From: an uncultured Candidatus Saccharibacteria bacterium
GTDB lineage: Bacteria; Patescibacteriota; Saccharimonadia; Saccharimonadales; Saccharimonadaceae
Assembly (NCBI GenBank): GCA_963516005.1
Contig: CAUPYP010000001.1
Span: forward strand, 39,400-103,399
DNA: 64,000 nt
Reading direction: 5' to 3'
Below the pieces are notes generated by a model. That model saw only the letters and a list, made by a program, of their open reading frames with translations. It ran no database searches and was not told the DNA's origin. Positions 43,914 to 57,859 of this stretch are shown here, in pieces; the stretch's first letter is position 1, and each line of letters starts with the position of its first letter. The position numbers and the translations under genes were made by a program.

Positions 43914-43935
43914 TTTTCCACAGTTCTGTGGAAAA
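43914..43935. promoter_or_regulatory. Perfect 10-bp inverted repeat TTTTCCACAG-tt-CTGTGGAAAA (DnaA-box-like half sites)
   Basis: Read directly from the sequence. Each half contains TTTTCCACA, one mismatch from the DnaA box TTATCCACA. An extra AAATCCACA lies at 43904-43912. Confidence 0.4.
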
Positions 43936-50566: not shown

Positions 50567-51705
50567 AAATTTTAACAGTTGGTGGTGGATCGGGTGGACA
50601 TATTATTCCGGTAGTGGCAGTGGTCGAAAAACTACATCAGCTGGCACCGGAAGCGGAAATTCGTTTTTGGTGCGATCGCAAGAGTTTGAAAATGGCACGA
50701 GAGGCGTTTGCTGGTCAATCGGTTGCAATTAAATCTATCTCAGCTGGTAAGTTTCGGCGTTATCATCACTTCAGTTGGTGGCAACATTTGCGCCCCTCAA
50801 TTGTCATTCCAAATTTGATTGATTTGTTCAAGATTGTTGGTGGTTTTATACAGAGTTGGTGGCGACTACTGATCTGGCGACCAGATGTAGTGTTTGCAAA
50901 AGGTGGTTTTGTGTGTTTACCGGTGGGGATCGTGGCACATTGGCTGGGGATTAAACTGATTATTCACGATTCAGACACCGTAGCTGGGCTAACTAATCGA
51001 ATTTTATCGAAATATGCTGTAAAAATCACAACAGGTATGCCGGTTGAATACTATCGTTATCCAACCGACAAAACAGTGTTTGTCGGTAGTCCGGTGCGTC
51101 AGGGCGGTGGATCGGTAGCTGATCTTCGGGCAGAATTACATATTTCGCCAAAAAAATTAGTGATTTTAGTCTCGGGTGGAGGACTAGGTTCGGACTTTTT
51201 AAATCGGATGACGCTAGCTAATCTTGAGCGTTTGCCAGAGAATTGTCAGGTGATTTTGTCGGCCGGTCGGGGTAATTATCAGGCGGTTATGAACCAAAAA
51301 TTTGATAAAAATACGCTAATCGTGCGTGATTTTGTGACTAATTTTGCCGATTATGTGCGATTGGCGGATGTGGTAGTGGCACGGGCTGGAGCAACTACTA
51401 TTGCCGAGCTGGCAGTGCTAGCCAAACCAGTGATTTTGGTTCCAAATCCAAAGTTGGTCGAGGGACATCAGTTGAAAAATGCCCAGATGCTAGCTGATAA
51501 ACAAGCAGCGGTAGTGCTGGATGAGTTTGCTTTGGAGCAGGTGCCAGAGCAATTCGGACGGGCAATTAATGAATTGTTAGATAATCAGCATCAGAGAGAA
51601 ATGTTGAGTCGTAATATTCAACAATTTGCGAATCCGCAGTCAGCGTTGACTCTGGCGGAATTAATTATTGCGGAAATTCAGGGCGGGGAAGGTGAGCGTG
51701 GATAA
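50563..51705 (+). CDS. murG: UDP-GlcNAc:lipid I GlcNAc transferase MurG
   Basis: GGGSGGHIIPVVAV, and RAGATTIAELA followed by the HQ..NA region. Confidence 0.9.
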   Translation: MKILTVGGGSGGHIIPVVAVVEKLHQLAPEAEIRFWCDRKSLKMAREAFAGQSVAIKSISAGKFRRYHHFSWWQHLRPSIVIPNLIDLFKIVGGFIQSWWRLLIWRPDVVFAKGGFVCLPVGIVAHWLGIKLIIHDSDTVAGLTNRILSKYAVKITTGMPVEYYRYPTDKTVFVGSPVRQGGGSVADLRAELHISPKKLVILVSGGGLGSDFLNRMTLANLERLPENCQVILSAGRGNYQAVMNQKFDKNTLIVRDFVTNFADYVRLADVVVARAGATTIAELAVLAKPVILVPNPKLVEGHQLKNAQMLADKQAAVVLDEFALEQVPEQFGRAINELLDNQHQREMLSRNIQQFANPQSALTLAELIIAEIQGGEGERG

Positions 51706-52777
51706 TTTTCGACCAAAATTTTACTATTCGCACAAAAACACAAACGCTAAGCGATTGCCTCGGCGTTCATTAGCACGAACAGAGTCGCAAACGGCCTCTG
51801 TGGAAGATACTCATCCTTCAGTGAAAGTGCCAATTGGCGACTCCACGAATTTCACGGCGGAATCGGCGATTGATACCGTGCCGACTTATCAACCGCGTTT
51901 AGATCAGCGTTCGCAACTGCGTCAGTCGGCACCGCACTCAGCACGCACTTCTCAGATGACTTTTTCGGGTAGGAGTTTTAATGTTGGTCAAACCTTGCGA
52001 GCTAATGAAGTGTCGGAACGTGACAATCTCAAAAAACTACGCAATCGGCGTAAAAAAATCCTTCGATTGCTACGCTACAGCATCTTCGGTATTGTGCTAA
52101 TGACGATTTTTATGCGGTTTTTTATTTTTAAAATTGAGGTAAAAGTCGTTGATTTTCAAACTCCACCCGAGACTGCTAAATACCAAACGGCGATTGCTAA
52201 TTATTTGGCGCAACAGCCATTTGAGCGACTGAGTTTTAATATTGATAAATCACATTTGGAGCGTTCGATTCAGGCGGAACATCCAGAATTATTAGAAGTA
52301 AAACAGATTACTAGTGGCTTTTTGCAACCAACTCAATTTGAGCTGGTACTGCGCAAGCCGGTGGCGACCATGTTAGTTAATCAAAAACGCTATTTTGTCG
52401 ATTCGGCTGGTGTGCCGTTTGCCCATAATTACCATCAAACCCCAAGTATTGAGATTAATGATCAATCCGGCATTAAACAGTCAGGACAGCTCAATCAACA
52501 ACTAATCAGCGGACGATTTTTACGCTTTATCGGTCGAGCGATTGCCCTGACTAGCGAAAAAAACTATCAGATCGTCTCAGCGATAATTCCGACTGGTACG
52601 GTGCATCAAATTGAATTTAAGGTCAAAGGTTTTGAGCTGTATCTTAAAATGACGATTGATCGAGATGTGGCTGAACAAGTTGAAGATGCAACGCGAAGTC
52701 TTGATTATATCAAGCGAACTGGGCTTAAGCCTCAATATCTCGATGTACGTGTCGCCAATAAGGTATTTTATAAATAA
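51668..52777 (+). CDS. ftsQ: FtsQ/DivIB-like division protein with a long basic, disordered N-terminal extension
   Basis: About 120 aa of low-complexity N-terminus, one TM, then a POTRA/FtsQ-like domain. The start codon is uncertain (TTG 51668, GTG 51692 or GTG 51698). Confidence 0.55.
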   Translation: MRKFRAGKVSVDNFRPKFYYSHKNTNAKRLPRRSLARTESQTASVEDTHPSVKVPIGDSTNFTAESAIDTVPTYQPRLDQRSQLRQSAPHSARTSQMTFSGRSFNVGQTLRANEVSERDNLKKLRNRRKKILRLLRYSIFGIVLMTIFMRFFIFKIEVKVVDFQTPPETAKYQTAIANYLAQQPFERLSFNIDKSHLERSIQAEHPELLEVKQITSGFLQPTQFELVLRKPVATMLVNQKRYFVDSAGVPFAHNYHQTPSIEINDQSGIKQSGQLNQQLISGRFLRFIGRAIALTSEKNYQIVSAIIPTGTVHQIEFKVKGFELYLKMTIDRDVAEQVEDATRSLDYIKRTGLKPQYLDVRVANKVFYK

Positions 52778-52796
52778 ATAGATATTAAATAGACAT

Positions 52797-52866
52797 AAAA
52801 AATAGCCACTTGGTAGGCCGGCGAATACTAGGAGGGTAAGATCCGCCAGCCAACTAAATGGCTATG
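52797..52866 (-). ncRNA. Candidate small RNA: a 64-nt imperfect hairpin with a C-rich loop, followed by a U-tract
   Basis: A stem of about 25 bp (AUAGCCA..UGGCUAU at the base) carries 3 G-U pairs that would be A-C mismatches on the + strand. The 14-nt loop is CUUACCCUCCUAGU and a U6 tract follows. A consensus promoter lies just upstream. Confidence 0.5.
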
Positions 52867-52872
52867 TAGGGG

Positions 52873-52901
52873 ATTATAGCAGGTCGAGGTGATAAAGTCA
52901 A
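52873..52901 (-). promoter_or_regulatory. Sigma70-type promoter TTGACT-17-TATAAT driving the hairpin sRNA candidate
   Basis: On the - strand the -35 TTGACT is at 52896-52901 and the -10 TATAAT at 52873-52878, with TGc just upstream of the -10. The spacer is 17 nt. Confidence 0.55.
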
Positions 52902-52989
52902 GTATTTTTCGGGTTTTCCCCTGATCTCTGCTCTAGTTCGGTTTTTGTTCTTTTAATCAAATACAGGGGTGGACTGGCGAAAAATATAT

Positions 52990-53018
52990 ATTATCATATC
53001 AAAATATAAAAAAGTCAA
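52990..53018 (-). promoter_or_regulatory. Second leftward promoter, TTGACT-17-GATAAT
   Basis: On the - strand the -35 is at 53013-53018 and the -10 GATAAT at 52990-52995. Confidence 0.4.
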
Positions 53019-53323
53019 ATAGGGCGGGTAGGGCGAAAAAACATAGAGCAGGGCATAAAATCAAAAAAATGCAAATTATATTTAATCTGTGGAAAACTTT
53101 TAAATTAGGCATCAAATGTTGTAAAAAATGACATAAACTAATGGACTAAAACTGAACGTGCGGTAGTGGCAGAGTTATAGGCAGTGGCTGACTAGCTGAA
53201 TAACTAACCGAGTGCGAGTTAATCAGTGGTAGATGATAATTAGAGCATGTGTCAGAGATGGTTAATACTCGAGAAGTATAGAAACTTCCCTGGCAATTTT
53301 TTGATAAATCTGGGGCGGTTCAT

Positions 53324-53414
53324 TGGTCTTAAGTAACTAGTTAGCTCAAATCCAGGTTCGAGAATTCGATAATGGTCTTAATAAAATTGATTCTTAGCTC
53401 CCTGCTGGGTTCGA
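53324..53414 (+). repeat. Degenerate tandem duplication TGGTCTTAA-N(8/12)-TTAGCTC-N7-GGTTCGA
   Basis: Unit 1 has its boxes at 53324, 53341 and 53355. Unit 2 has them at 53373, 53394 and 53408. Confidence 0.5.
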
Positions 53415-53921
53415 CAGGGGTTTTGGGGCGATTTATGCTTGGACACGGCTGGATGTTGAATCATCTAGAGATCGCTTCTTTAATGACATAAAATAAACAT
53501 TGTGCGACATTAAGATATAAACATAAACATGAATATATACTCATCTAAAATCAGTCTCAAAACTAGCCTTATGACATAACATTCCCTAAAACACGTTTTA
53601 GAGCCCCTATTTACGGCTTGGAATGGTTTTTCGACCCATTGTGCCGATATTCACATTATGTTGCATATCAGCCTGATTTTGGCAGATTGATGATTATTCG
53701 GTAATTGAGCCCAAGCTTTAATAACGGCCGGATGAATGATTAATATTACAAACAGATTCTGATGATAATGAATTAGTGTATGTAATCAACTTAAACCAAC
53801 GAGCGCTAGCCGACGGTTTAAAATATTATAAGTTCGGTTTTTGTTCAGCGGGAATCGTGTGTTGAAATATTAAAGGTAGTTGGTGCCTCGCCTACTCCGT
53901 TTCCGAAGGTGTAAATCTTGA

Positions 53922-53952
53922 CGCAAAACCACCTCTGTTTAAACAGAGGTGG
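53922..53952 (-). terminator. Intrinsic terminator after the VirD4/TraD-like ATPase gene
   Basis: Perfect 12-bp palindrome CCACCTCTGTTT/AAACAGAGGTGG, followed on the - strand by TTTTGCG. Confidence 0.7.
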
Positions 53953-53960
53953 GGAATTGA

Positions 53961-56684
53961 CTATTTCGGCTGGTTTTTTGACTTATTGTGAGGTGGACGA
54001 CGGCGTGGACGTTTTTTAGCAGTAGTGCCAGCTGGATTCTGTCCTGCCGATGATCCGGTGTTGGTGTTTGGCGTGCCAAAGAGGCTCTTGATTTCACTCA
54101 GGGCTTTCGGATTGAGGCGTTGGTAGCCACTATCGGAGGTATCAGTGCCATCAGGCGCAGGTTCATGATCAGAAGGGCGTATTTTACGCAAATCAAGCTG
54201 ATTATTTCCCCTGTTATCCCCTGTTGGTTGGTGTAATTTTTCTTGAAAACGCTGGCGACTTGGTGTGTCAAATTGTTCAGGAATCTTAATGACGCTAGCG
54301 ATTTCATGCTCAACATCAGCTCGATTACGGCCGTAATAACGGCGACTGTGATCGATAATTTGGTCGAGATAATCAGCTGGTGGTTCAGGTAGATTGAGGG
54401 TCGAAGCCGAGAAGGCCGGTTGTTTTTCACCGTTAATAATCATGCTCATAATGAAATGACGGTTGTGCATATTGACTAAATCATTGACCTCAAACTGTGG
54501 TTCGAATTGTTTGACTAACAGTGGTGCATCATCAGCTGACACGCGGAAGGAAATCATCGAACCGACGTTACCGAAGACGGCAGTGCGTACTTCATCACTC
54601 ATCTGGGCAATGTACTGGTTGGCGACGGTCAGGTTTAGAGCGTATTTGCGCGCCTCAGACAGAATAGTCGCGAAAGAGTCGGTGGCAAAGTTCTGGAACT
54701 CGTCAACGTAGAGATAGAACGGACGACGATCGGCGATGTTCGGAATATCAGAACGACTCATGGCGGCGAGCTGAATCTTAGTTACTAAGAATGCCCCCAA
54801 AATACTGGCATTATCCTCTCCAATTAGACCTTTGGAGAGATTAACAACCAGGATTTTACCATCATCCATCAGTTGGCGAATATTAAAGGTTGATTTTGGT
54901 TGGCCGATGATATTACGAATAATTGGGTTGGCGGTGAAGGCACCGACTTTGTTCAGGACTGGCGCAATAGCTTCAGTGGCGTATTTTTCATTCCAACTGG
55001 CAAATTCCAGCTTCCAGAACTGTAAAATCACGGTGTCTGTGACATAATTGAGGGTTTCTTTACGGAACTCCTTGTCAGTCAACATACGGGTGATATCGAG
55101 AATAGTCGTCTCCGGTCGCTCCAGAAGCGCTAGAATGGTATAGCGCAAGATGTGCTCAAGACGTGGACCCCAGGAATTACCAAACATGCGTTTGAGCACA
55201 CCAATTACCTCTGATGAAACTGTCAGGCGTTGGCTTGGGCTAGTAATTTCCAATGGGTTAAAACCAAGCGGAAAAGCGGTATCAGCTGGATTAAAATAGA
55301 TGACGTCTTTAATTCGGCGCTCAGGGATGAAGCGTAAATTATTGATAGCAAAGTCGCCGTGCGGATCAATGATCGCATAGCCTTGATTGTGATAAATATC
55401 CGAGAGTGCTAATAACTCCAAAGTACCAGATTTACCAGCGCCAGTTTGACCGATAATATAGAGGTGACGAGAGCGATCCTTGCGTAACATACCAAATTGA
55501 TGTTTGACGCCTCGGAAATCGGTCATACCAAAAGCTGAAATAGCGGGATTGGGAGCGGCATTGGGGTTAATAATTGGCAGTTTGGATGGTGGTTCGGCGG
55601 TTTTGGAAGATGCCCAAACAATATTAGGAGTTTCAACGTTAGTGTGGGGCAAGTGGTAAACACTAGCAAGCTCTTCGATGTTTAAAATAAAACCCTCATC
55701 GCTAAAACTACGAGCTTGGTAGGCAGTAATTTTCTCGGGGTCGAAGCTTGATTGTGACATCTGAAAACCGTTCAAATTGGTACTGTTAAACTGCTTAAAA
55801 GTACCGATAATCGACTGCATGCGCAAGCGAGCATGGTCTTCGTTACTGCCGGCGTAAACAATGCGGATTTTGACTTTAAAGCCGAGTTTAGCGGCTTTTT
55901 TCTCAGCTTCCGAGACTTGGAGTTTTTCGCGCTCGGAGAGTTCAGGTTTGTCAGGTTTTTCGCCAGCTTCGGGTGGTTTGGCAAGTGCGCCCAGGGCGGT
56001 CAAAAACCATTTAGCATCAAGGGCAAATTTAGCCTTTTTATCAGTGATATTGTCTTTGACCCATTTTTCAGAATCTTTATGCCAGGAGTCGGCAATCGGA
56101 CGAATCAGAATCTGAATCCATAATTCCTCGTCGGCGTCTTCAAGTTTAGCTAAAGTTCCAGTGATGCCAGCCAAGGGATCAACCTCGAAGCCATTAAAAG
56201 TACGAATTGGCAAAAACTCCGATTCTTTGAGGTCAACTTCAGCGGTGTGTACTACTGGCTTGCGGACATTGAGCGAATAATCATAATCAGCGGTTTTAAT
56301 TTGAACGCTAGGGTATTGAGCGTAAATCTGACCTTCAACGAAATTACGCAGGGTTTTTGGTAGACATAGATAAAACATAATTTGGCCATTGACAGTGGCG
56401 ATTTCGAAGCTGAGGTGTTCTTGAGGCACGCCACTCTCAATCAAGCTGGCGTCACGCAGAATACCGTGCAAGCTGGCGAACAACTGTTCAGCGGCAAGTT
56501 CGGATTTGTCATTGGTTTTGGGAATTTCGAGAATCAACAGTGTGCTTTCGGCTGATGATTCGATGGTTTGAATTTCGAGCTTTTGGTAATTGCGCCAGGT
56601 TAAATAGAGTAACAGAGTAACGGTTGGCATCCATACATACCAACTCAAGATGAATTTTATTAAGCCGGAAATCATTTCTAACAT
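53961..56684 (-). CDS. VirD4/TraD/TraG-like coupling-protein-type ATPase (FtsK/HerA superfamily) with an N-terminal TM and a basic C-terminal tail
   Basis: Walker A IIGQTGAGKSG, IIDPHGD, Walker B YLYVDEFQNFAT and ARKYALNLTVANQYIAQM. 907 aa. Confidence 0.6.
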   Translation of the reverse strand: MLEMISGLIKFILSWYVWMPTVTLLLYLTWRNYQKLEIQTIESSAESTLLILEIPKTNDKSELAAEQLFASLHGILRDASLIESGVPQEHLSFEIATVNGQIMFYLCLPKTLRNFVEGQIYAQYPSVQIKTADYDYSLNVRKPVVHTAEVDLKESEFLPIRTFNGFEVDPLAGITGTLAKLEDADEELWIQILIRPIADSWHKDSEKWVKDNITDKKAKFALDAKWFLTALGALAKPPEAGEKPDKPELSEREKLQVSEAEKKAAKLGFKVKIRIVYAGSNEDHARLRMQSIIGTFKQFNSTNLNGFQMSQSSFDPEKITAYQARSFSDEGFILNIEELASVYHLPHTNVETPNIVWASSKTAEPPSKLPIINPNAAPNPAISAFGMTDFRGVKHQFGMLRKDRSRHLYIIGQTGAGKSGTLELLALSDIYHNQGYAIIDPHGDFAINNLRFIPERRIKDVIYFNPADTAFPLGFNPLEITSPSQRLTVSSEVIGVLKRMFGNSWGPRLEHILRYTILALLERPETTILDITRMLTDKEFRKETLNYVTDTVILQFWKLEFASWNEKYATEAIAPVLNKVGAFTANPIIRNIIGQPKSTFNIRQLMDDGKILVVNLSKGLIGEDNASILGAFLVTKIQLAAMSRSDIPNIADRRPFYLYVDEFQNFATDSFATILSEARKYALNLTVANQYIAQMSDEVRTAVFGNVGSMISFRVSADDAPLLVKQFEPQFEVNDLVNMHNRHFIMSMIINGEKQPAFSASTLNLPEPPADYLDQIIDHSRRYYGRNRADVEHEIASVIKIPEQFDTPSRQRFQEKLHQPTGDNRGNNQLDLRKIRPSDHEPAPDGTDTSDSGYQRLNPKALSEIKSLFGTPNTNTGSSAGQNPAGTTAKKRPRRRPPHNKSKNQPK

Positions 56685-56806
56685 AACCGTATTATCTCAT
56701 ATTTTACTAAAAAACTCAATCGCGTCTCGAGTGTGTTAAGCGGACTGGCGAGCGACACAACTCCCCTACTCTTTTTGTGTGAAAAATAGCACTCGTTAAT
56801 GAGCGA

Positions 56807-57859
56807 TTAGGCTTTGGGTACGAAGTCGTAAGTTGCTTTAGCGACGCGTTTGAACTCAGGTCGAGCCTGAAGGTTTAATAACACGGTAGTTTCTTTGACT
56901 TTGCGTCGTTTGAGGACTTGTTTAACGATATCGTCACGATACATTGGCTGACCGTTTTGCTTGATGACATCAGCAATGATGTCTGCCACGGTGCCTTTTT
57001 TATAACCCCACTCATTAAGGGCGTAAATCCCCCGCCCGATTAGCACGAAGCGTTTGTCTTTGATAAGTTCGTTGTGAATGGCCTGTTTGGTGACGTCTTT
57101 GCGTTTAAAATTGCTACTGGCAATCTGGCTAGCAATATCCGAAAAATGCATCGGCTGACCGTTTTGTTTCAAGACAACGTAAATTTTGTCTTTGATATTG
57201 CGAGGATTGACATTTGGATCGGTCGCCATACCCCAGAGGTCGTTAAGGGTAGCGAGTTTTTTCGAAACTGCCGCTAAAGCGAGAATCTGCTTCGGATGGT
57301 TATAATCGAGTTTAGCGTCAAGTTCATCAAGACTGAGGGGCTGTTTGTTGGTTTTGATTAATTTAACGATTTCGTCAATTTGTTTGCGGTAGGTTTTAGC
57401 GTCGCCAAATTCGGCAATAGCAATTGCTTGAGCATAAGAGTCGTTTTCGTCGATTAACACGAGTTTGTTGCTAACTTCAGCGATAAAAGCCACCGTTAAA
57501 TCATCGCGCGCATCGAGCTGGTCGGCAAAGATATTCTTGGTCAAAGTTTTGGTCATGAGAATATTGCCGTTTTCAGTCAGTTGGCGAACAACGAGTTTTT
57601 CAAAAGCTGGCAAGTTGGCAATTTTGCCATCATCAGCGGCGATTTTCAAACGAATTAAGATGGCTTTTTCGAGCTGGCGGACGCGCTCACGAGTGATGCC
57701 CAAAAACTCGCCGATTTGTTCGAGAGTTTCGGTTTTGCCGTCCAGACCGAAGCGTCGGGTGATAATCTGTCGTTCGCGATCCTGTTCTAAATAGCTCAAC
57801 AGATCATTAATTACATCTGTTAGAATTTGATGCTCGGCCGATGTTTGTTTGCCAGTCAT
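56807..57859 (-). CDS. DNA-binding protein: sigma-70 region-4-like HTH plus two HARE-HTH-like modules
   Basis: N-terminal RRFGLDGKTETLEQIGEFLGITRERVRQLEKAIL. The C-terminal half has duplicated segments (VLKQNGQPMHFSDIASQI.., VIKQNGQPMYRDDIVKQV..). Confidence 0.55.
   Translation of the reverse strand: MTGKQTSAEHQILTDVINDLLSYLEQDRERQIITRRFGLDGKTETLEQIGEFLGITRERVRQLEKAILIRLKIAADDGKIANLPAFEKLVVRQLTENGNILMTKTLTKNIFADQLDARDDLTVAFIAEVSNKLVLIDENDSYAQAIAIAEFGDAKTYRKQIDEIVKLIKTNKQPLSLDELDAKLDYNHPKQILALAAVSKKLATLNDLWGMATDPNVNPRNIKDKIYVVLKQNGQPMHFSDIASQIASSNFKRKDVTKQAIHNELIKDKRFVLIGRGIYALNEWGYKKGTVADIIADVIKQNGQPMYRDDIVKQVLKRRKVKETTVLLNLQARPEFKRVAKATYDFVPKA

Follow-up and report, generated by a model that had tools for sequence, protein, structure and literature searches.

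Xer recombination at dif has been described in several forms. In Escherichia coli and Bacillus subtilis, the XerCD/dif system works together with FtsK and its FtsK orienting polar sequences (KOPS); two recombinases act on a 28-bp site of the 11-6-11 type, present once per chromosome, and FtsK possesses a gamma domain. The XerS/difSL and XerH/difH systems also depend on FtsK, but a single Xer protein works on both arms, the recombinases are about 355 amino acids (aa) long and are encoded beside their sites, and the sites are atypical, with a length of at least 31 bp. In the archaeal Thermococcales, a single recombinase, XerA, whose gene is unlinked to its site, uses a 28-bp dif with 11-bp inverted arms and a 6-bp centre; conserved sequence flanks this dif, and the archaea are devoid of FtsK (Cortez et al. 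2010, PMC2958812). In Vibrio, dif also receives integrative mobile elements exploiting Xer (IMEX), such as TLCphi and VGJphi (PMC5357621). Among the papers listed by full-text literature searches, none linked Saccharibacteria with dif or Xer. Here, a window of 64,000 nucleotides (the whole stretch of DNA that was analysed; assembly GCA_963516005.1, contig CAUPYP010000001.1, positions 39,400–103,399) from an uncultured Candidatus Saccharibacteria bacterium was studied. The non-coding region at positions 52778–53960 of this window, referred to below as the gap, is likely, judging from sequence comparisons, to be the phage-free dif locus of the chromosome, with its core at 53483–53510.

The site in the gap consists of two 11-bp arms in inverted symmetry around a 6-bp centre, 28 bp in total (Table 1), thus sharing its geometry with the E. 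coli, B. subtilis and archaeal sites. It occurs once in the genome of the window (G000, with contigs C1 and C2; other G numbers denote related genomes). Short matches of other genera all fell on the stretch that is duplicated in the relative G002 (see below) and gave the consensus ATGTCGTAAAA-GATATA-TTGTGCGACAT. The clade consensus was ATGTCG(C/T)AAAA-N6-TTGTGCGACAT and that of the order ATGTCGCAAAA-TATACA-TTGTGCGACAT (core GTCGCAAAA-TATACA-TTGTGCGAC), with almost perfectly symmetric arms, a difference from the E. coli and B. subtilis sites. Read on the other strand (ATGTCGCACAA-TGTATA-TTTTGCGACAT), the order consensus was identical to E. coli dif, GGTGCGCATAA-TGTATA-TTATGTTAAAT (PMC3025954), at 19 of 28 positions including the whole centre.

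The search of the family with the pattern GTCGTAAAA-N6-TTGTGCGAC, with up to two mismatches allowed, detected the site in 143 of 151 genomes, nearly always once, and the reversed pattern used as a control gave about seven matches in total. The site was also found in 117 of 121 order genomes representing 71 families, and a slightly degenerate pattern matched all 121 class genomes and 98 of 151 genomes of the phylum (Patescibacteria), with phylum-level variants such as GTCGCATAA-GATACA-TTGTGCGAC. The named public genomes with matches belonged to Candidatus Saccharibacteria/Saccharimonadales, Paceibacterota, Woesebacteria, Campbellbacteria and other Patescibacteria. The surroundings of the site were conserved as well. 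An ftsQ orthologue was identified by tblastn 340–700 bp to the left of it in more than 25 loci from many genera, a VirD4-like gene was syntenic beside it in many Saccharibacteria, and the ftsQ-site-virD4 order was retained in G027, a complete 669-kb genome from another family. The ATPase encoded next to the dif site is of the membrane-anchored TrwB/HerA type (window 53961–57859; loci L124–L243), and in other Saccharibacteria a sigma-region-4/HARE-helix-turn-helix gene lies directly beside the site instead. Outside this group, an identical 24-mer, GTCGTAAAAACAAGGTTGTACGAC, fitting the search pattern was noticed in metagenome-assembled genomes of Collinsella (L143, L158, L168, L192, L197, L208 and L228); it may be a dif-type site of these bacteria or an unrelated conserved element.

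Sequence indications of recombination at the site came from prophages. In G002, the region homologous to the gap was interrupted, as the parts matching query positions 13–758 and 707–1183 lay 4.5 kb apart, with about 50 bp duplicated. The 4.57-kb insert between the duplicated site copies (L028:2817–7409; G002:C3:~91.8–96.4 kb) contained eight ORFs (open reading frames), encoding small membrane proteins, a 505-aa protein, a Zot/pI-type assembly ATPase (PF05707, E = 2.8e-4) and a rolling-circle Rep (PF23343, E = 2.8e-13). No integrase was encoded in this insert, and the phages at the site encode no recombinase. The presence of Zot and Rep without an integrase classified the insert as an inovirus-type prophage. 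Its nearest relatives in GenBank were 4–6-kb inoviruses from rodent and pig faeces (36–40% Zot identity), and inoviruses in genomes of the candidate phyla radiation (CPR) have been reported in general terms (PMC6813254). Rep homologues were detected in 23 of 301 family genomes, and in G014, G060, G077, G144, G124, G168 and G002 the Rep and Zot genes were located 3–4.5 kb from the site.

A prophage inserted exactly at the site was found in seven relatives from six genera. The layout was ftsQ, complete site, prophage, hybrid site and virD4, except for G124, in which the hybrid was on the ftsQ side. In the hybrid site, a degenerate left arm ending with ACAA was followed by a 6-bp centre and then by a perfect TTGTGCGAC arm. 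The centre was that of the host's own site in each case, GATATA in four hosts, GGTACA in G014 and TAAACA in G002. Identical centres in the partner sites are a requirement for strand exchange by tyrosine recombinases. The co-variation of the centre between phage and host across genera places the crossover inside the 28-mer. By their sequence, the prophages fit the definition of IMEX, apparently borrowing the host Xer recombinase, with the site as the predicted IMEX attachment site. They share with TLCphi and VGJphi, the closest types (PMC5357621), the lack of an integrase in an inovirus, an attachment site mimicking dif, in which one arm is good, the other degenerate and the centre identical to the host's, and the restoration of a complete dif on one side upon integration. 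They differ in having a CPR host with a single Xer, in their size of 4.5–6 kb and only distant relationship, and no activation factor such as XafT was identified here. G000 itself carries no such phage, and the gap thus represents an empty site. In G047 (C35:265), G048 (C8:30), G085 (C63:31) and G122 (C6:29), second site copies were located at the very ends of contigs, which are probably assembly breaks caused by further elements at dif.

The only PF00589 recombinase of G000 is a Xer-family protein of 303 aa, encoded at C2:217.8 kb (L032:1453–2364, minus strand) and, like the archaeal XerA gene, unlinked to the site. Its NCBIfam scores were 247 bits for XerD and 244 bits for XerC, both under the cut-off, and 226.9 for XerA_Arch with the cut-off of 220. 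On these scores the predicted protein is assignable to neither XerC nor XerD and passes the threshold of the archaeal XerA. The genome also encodes one FtsK with 4TM, alpha, motor and gamma domains. The locus therefore combines one recombinase, as opposed to two in E. coli and B. subtilis, with a full bacterial FtsK including the gamma domain, which distinguishes it from the archaeal system. In comparison with XerS and XerH, the recombinase is shorter, its gene is on another contig than the site, and the site has the canonical 28-bp geometry.

In the mechanism proposed, the single Xer-family recombinase would bind the two inverted 11-bp arms and swap strands across the 6-bp centre, which would resolve chromosome dimers at division. 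The recombinase would probably be delivered or activated by FtsK, whose KOPS-reading gamma domain would be guided by G-rich words of the GNAGGG type pointing to the site from either side. The integrase-less inoviruses, through their mimic of the site (the degenerate arm ending with ACAA, the host's centre and the perfect TTGTGCGAC arm), would integrate via the host recombinase as IMEX elements do, G000 presenting the phage-free state. The remainder of the gap would be conserved non-coding architecture plus fast-evolving filler, maybe with scars of earlier insertions.

The position of the site in the chromosome was also analysed. On C1, the genes between 10 and 92 kb are located on the + strand and those between 93 and 312 kb on the − strand, and the dif site lies exactly at the switch. 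Its location at a genome-scale gene-strand switch was also observed in G017 (complete, 778 kb; site at 477,057) and G027. A chromosome-organisation site had been one of the options offered for the gap by the sequence-only reading of the window, and it was the right one insofar as the region holds a dif-type Xer recombination site at such a switch. In G017, dnaA and the skew minimum are at 743 kb, which puts the site about 124 degrees from dnaA/oriC. The archaeal XerA/dif sites, located at 120–142 degrees, are likewise off 180 degrees (PMC2958812).

Since the genes flip at the site, any word of the coding strand flips there too and a plain k-mer polarity scan is confounded by gene strand; the scan was therefore stratified by gene strand. 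It revealed two classes of strand-independent polar words, GTTG-type words, which followed the skew, and G-rich words (AGGG, AAGGG, GNAGGG), which flipped at the site. The latter resemble both KOPS, GGGNAGGG, and the SpoIIIE recognition sequence (SRS), GAGAAGGG. In minus-strand genes of G000, the top:bottom counts of GNAGGG were 11:0 to the left and 9:22 to the right of the site (p = 4e-5), and in plus-strand genes 30:5 and 5:7, respectively (p = 0.005), a flip opposing the local GC skew. For the critical block of G017, p = 0.006–0.007 was obtained. The distance between the site and the cumulative maximum of AGNAGGG was 0.4 kb in G000 and 2.5 kb in G017, and when 111,452 words from the surroundings of the site in the two genomes were scanned without bias, AGGGNA ranked 2nd, AGGGNAG 4th, GNAGGG 5th and GGNAGGG 9th. 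This convergence of polar words on the site is supportive, not decisive. The Lactococcus-type polar word GAAGAAG was also considered as the orienting word and rejected, as it follows the coding strand.

Several observations weigh against a dif of the textbook kind. The cumulative GC-skew maximum was identified at C1:~200 kb in G000, 107 kb off the site, and at ~380 kb in G017, about 100 kb off it, and in G027 the skew peak was about 80 kb past the site, so that the site is 80–107 kb away from the GC-skew shift point at which dif is expected. In more than 500 genomes of Proteobacteria and Firmicutes, dif is located within 3% of the genome length from this point (PMC3025954); the offset of 12–14% found here, by which the locus differs from those of E. 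coli and B. subtilis, is a real departure. The replication-linked word GTTG flipped at the skew peak, not at the site, whereas in Thermococcales the 4-nt archaeal short polarized sequences (GTTG/GTTC) peak at dif (PMC2958812) and here it is the GNAGGG words that converge on the site instead. The scores of the word scan were non-significant after multiple-testing correction, and in G027 the sign change of GNAGGG was 45 kb past the site. The left arm has two to three substitutions from the consensus in this genus (GACA or GGCA for GTCG). Given the synteny of the locus, the conservation in single copy could by itself be explained by any conserved cis element. No phage attachment site (attP) mimic was detected in four GenBank inoviruses (36–40% Zot identity) or in two circular IMG/VR genomes (58–59% identity), and a free form of the IMEX was not found among them.

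The coordinates of the features of the locus are given in Table 1.

Table 1. Features of the gap and its boundaries (window positions).
Feature	Position	Strand	Basis or conservation
ftsQ-like gene, last of the dcw cluster, left boundary	51668..52777	+	ORF list
Candidate small RNA unit: promoter TTGACT-17-TGcTATAAT (52901..52873), hairpin (52866..52800), U6 tract	52794..52901	-	promoter scan, folding
Left GTTC-N7-GTTC box, GTTCGGTTTTTGTTC	52936..52950	+	in 17/17 aligned genera and G027
AT-rich block with leftward promoter-like site TTGACT-17-GATAAT (53018..52990); plus strand AAAAAGTCAAAT	52990..53020	-	promoter scan
KOPS-like G-rich words GGGTAGGG, GAGCAGGG, pointing toward the dif site	53026..53053	+	block AGtaGGG conserved across genera
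DnaA-box-like 9-mer TGTGGAAAA (TGTGGATAA in some relatives)	53088..53096	+	in 16/17 genera and G027
Fast-evolving filler, starting at dif left-arm copy AATGACATAAAC (53127-53141), with degenerate duplication 53341-53414	53128..53396	.	unalignable within the genus
dif site, 11-6-11: left arm ATGACATAAAA, centre TAAACA, right arm TTGTGCGACAT	53483-53510	+	cross-genus alignment
Third left-arm 12-mer copy ATGACATAACAT	53571..53582	+	repeat family D1
Right GTTC-N7-GTTC box, identical to the left one, same orientation	53832..53846	+	also in other genera, G027
Intrinsic terminator of the VirD4-like gene	53929..53952	-	terminator scan: 10-bp stem, then T-run
TrwB/VirD4/HerA-type ATPase gene, 907 aa, right boundary	53961..56684	-	Pfam PF10412, PF01935, PF02534

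The gap is bounded by the converging stops of the ftsQ-like gene and the ATPase gene. Its 1183 bp contain no ORF of 60 codons or more, as had been read from the sequence, with the longest ORF of 39 aa. The description of the gap as exceptional among the spacers of the window also held, the next largest ORF-free stretch having 352 bp; in the 736-kb genome, in which gaps have a median of 69 bp and a 95th percentile of 351 bp, it ranks third. In 17 of 17 genera examined, a non-coding ftsQ-virD4 gap of 545–1226 bp was present, and this is the ancestral state of the family. Within the genus, the identity to the gap was 88% over the full length in G003, and 86% and 68% over the first 320–350 bp in G001 and G004, respectively. 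No ORF was conserved across the gaps of the 17 genera, and the tblastx matches between them fell in all frames on both strands, which indicated conservation at the nucleotide level.

Around the dif-type site, a conserved order of elements was recognized. From left to right, these are a GTTC-N7-GTTC box, an AT-rich block, GYCAAAT boxes, GNAGGG words, a DnaA-box-like 9-mer, variable DNA, the dif site, variable DNA and a second GTTC-N7-GTTC box. G027 carries the same module despite belonging to another family. The GTTC-N7-GTTC box has two copies in the genome, both within the gap, and the AT-rich block is conserved family-wide as AatATAT..AAAAA..CAAAT. In G027, an additional ORF of about 180 aa was observed between ftsQ and the module (C1:225632–226170), hence the conserved unit is the module, not the entire gap. 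The G-rich boxes were confirmed to recur upstream of mraZ. A further box pointed out in the sequence-only reading was identified as CTGTGGAAAAC at 53087–53097, the position of the DnaA-box-like 9-mer. Such 9-mers cluster around dnaA at the skew minimum, which makes TGTGGAAAA the local DnaA box. The segment 53080–53100 was identical at 20 of 21 nt to the dnaA upstream region, and a second shared word follows in both, the words common to the two regions being ATCTGTGGAAAACTT and AATGTTGTAAAAAAT.

Elsewhere in the genome, the 9-mer was found in palindromic pairs, TTTTCCACA-N4-TGTGGAAAA, upstream of mraZ (window 43914–43935) and near the transfer-messenger RNA (tmRNA) gene (C2:234258–234279), and as a triple tandem at C2:166.3 kb (C2:166301–166348), a point of diverging gene orientation at a distance of 62 kb from dnaA and the skew minimum. 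The gap was also considered as oriC and rejected, as it has one 9-mer only and the genes converge on it; dnaA and the cluster of boxes are located at C2:103–105 kb, at the skew minimum.

It could be argued that the gap chiefly houses one or more non-coding RNA genes, with the minus-strand unit at 52794–52901 as the leading candidate, and that an RNA function keeps the gap. The two near-consensus leftward promoters noticed earlier were found (Table 1), and the gap contained 14 promoter-like sites, the majority leftward, in comparison with 4.7 +/- 2.0 in shuffled sequences. The promoter of the unit matches the consensus at 11 of 12 positions with an extended TG. The hairpin that had been proposed was likewise present, with 25-bp arms at 52802–52865, and its folding was more pronounced on the minus strand (−34.5 kcal/mol, z = −6.65) than on the plus strand (−28.2, z = −3.5). 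In at least three to five other genera, hairpins with other stems but the same loop, CTAGGAGGG(C/T)A (minus strand CCCUCCUAG), were located about 450–500 bp away from the site, with minus-strand promoter-like sites upstream (L057, L061, G095, G155); the search with the loop motif was noisy, the matches being not far above the control. The loop sequence, CCCUCCU, is similar to the anti-Shine-Dalgarno end of 16S rRNA. The RNA of the signal recognition particle (SRP; small and large bacterial types) and 6S RNA had no Rfam match anywhere in G000, which is 99.9% complete, and RNase P RNA and tmRNA were located elsewhere, on C2. The gap hairpin was considered as SRP RNA and rejected, as it has no SRP features.

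Against an RNA as the reason for the gap, Rfam 15 at the gathering threshold identified no family in the whole window, the search of the gap at E <= 10 gave nothing credible (best E = 0.57, a Plasmodium family), and ARAGORN detected no tRNA or tmRNA. The hairpin covers less than 10% of the gap, and although the gap and the dif site are found in all 17 genera, most of them lack the hairpin, which hence fails to account for the gap. An RNA gene as the main content of the gap is therefore unlikely. Of the RNA option in the sequence-only reading, what stands is the unit at 52794–52901, which, given its recurrence in other genera, is a fair candidate for a small RNA (sRNA) or, alternatively, the 3' hairpin of ftsQ. 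Such an sRNA could coexist with a dif site in the gap.

The site could also serve only as an attachment site of phages or other mobile elements, or as an oriT-like site for the VirD4/TraD-type coupling ATPase, with no role in dimer resolution. Its distance of 80–107 kb from the skew-defined terminus would fit such a role, the gene of a coupling protein adjoins it in many Saccharibacteria, and inverted repeats are common at oriT sites. However, the VirD4-like gene was within 2.5 kb in only 17 of 120 named loci, the site being kept in lineages without a detectable neighbour of this kind, and no relaxase gene was noted. The site was present in all 121 class genomes, whereas only 23 of the 301 family genomes had the phages, and a pure phage target would not be preserved so well by the host. 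Together with the dif architecture and the likeness to E. coli dif, this makes an attachment or transfer function alone very improbable.

As another explanation, the gap might be a replication fork trap or terminus element, in which the GTTC-N7-GTTC boxes act as Ter-like sites for a terminator protein. There is one box on either side of the site, the boxes are conserved throughout the order, and the gene strand switches at the same point. Nevertheless, the two boxes point in the same direction, unlike the opposed sites of fork traps, and the GC and GTTG skews continue for 80–107 kb through the locus, which indicates that the forks are not arrested there. A fork trap thus seems extremely unlikely.

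The sequence-only reading had further suggested a recently destroyed gene, noting that ftsA and ftsZ were expected at this position. The expectation proved pointless, as nothing is missing here: ftsA (G000:C1:~14.3–15.6 kb) and ftsZ (C1:15,584–16,780) are intact and adjacent 76 kb upstream of the gap. The tblastx search of the gap against G000 returned only the gap itself, and remnants of ftsA or ftsZ, of phage genes or of any other gene of the genome were not detected. In tblastx and blastn searches, no similarity of the gap to G000 genes, related inovirus loci or GenBank phages was found beyond the att core. The part most suggestive of an old insertion is the filler. The alignments to G001 and G004 end at query positions 350 and 321 and restart at 619 and 706, respectively. 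The genus-specific left arm of dif, AATGACATAAA, is present three times in the gap (53127–53141, 53482–53496 and 53571–53582), and the first copy is exactly where the alignment to G001 breaks off. As the filler starts at a left-arm copy and a third copy follows at 53571, it may be a scar of earlier insertions; the third copy is possibly a scar or an accessory half-site. The degenerate tandem duplication described before was found in the filler (Table 1). It was considered as a tRNA remnant and rejected, with only T-loop words of 9–10 nt matching, and the filler showed no similarity to phages, tRNAs or other G000 DNA. The gap as a whole being the remnant of a destroyed gene or a decayed prophage is scarcely credible in spite of its unusual length and of a filler that is unconserved within the genus and begins at a left-arm copy, as these searches found no phage or gene relatives, ftsA and ftsZ are intact elsewhere, no ORF is kept in a gap that is ancestral in the family, and at most the filler of about 270 bp could be a scar.

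With the gap taken as a dif locus, two of its features merit further study: the site lies consistently about 100 kb away from the terminus defined by skew, and it is flanked by a conserved module containing a DnaA box. The direction of the offset was also the same in G000, G017 and G027, with the skew peak on the virD4 side. On this side, a block of 80–107 kb (G000:C1:93–200 kb; G017:380–477 kb; G027:226–306 kb) has its genes oriented against the replication direction implied by the skew. This block of head-on genes was seen in three genomes of two families, with the direction taken from GC and GTTG skew. As a tentative proposal, which is possible rather than probable, in Saccharibacteria, and perhaps in CPR generally, the site of dimer resolution (at about 124 degrees from oriC and at the convergence of gene orientation and KOPS-like words) might be uncoupled from the meeting of the forks, about 100 kb further on through head-on genes, and the conserved module of 0.5–0.9 kb might link DnaA or another DNA-binding protein to resolution or segregation. 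To our knowledge, no such arrangement has been reported at a dif locus.

Almost nothing is known of the cell cycle of Saccharibacteria and other members of the CPR, which live as tiny episymbionts. Being definable in a single line of sequence, the site can serve as a marker when CPR assemblies are oriented and checked, and additional copies at the ends of contigs point to inserted prophages. It also tells where a family of small inoviruses integrates, and hence which bacteria are their hosts, and it is a natural, conserved position at which genetic tools could be inserted in the few strains amenable to cultivation. Given the consistent offset of about 100 kb and the conserved flanking module, it becomes testable whether a minimal bacterial chromosome can separate the resolution of dimers, the orientation of genes and the convergence of forks from one another.

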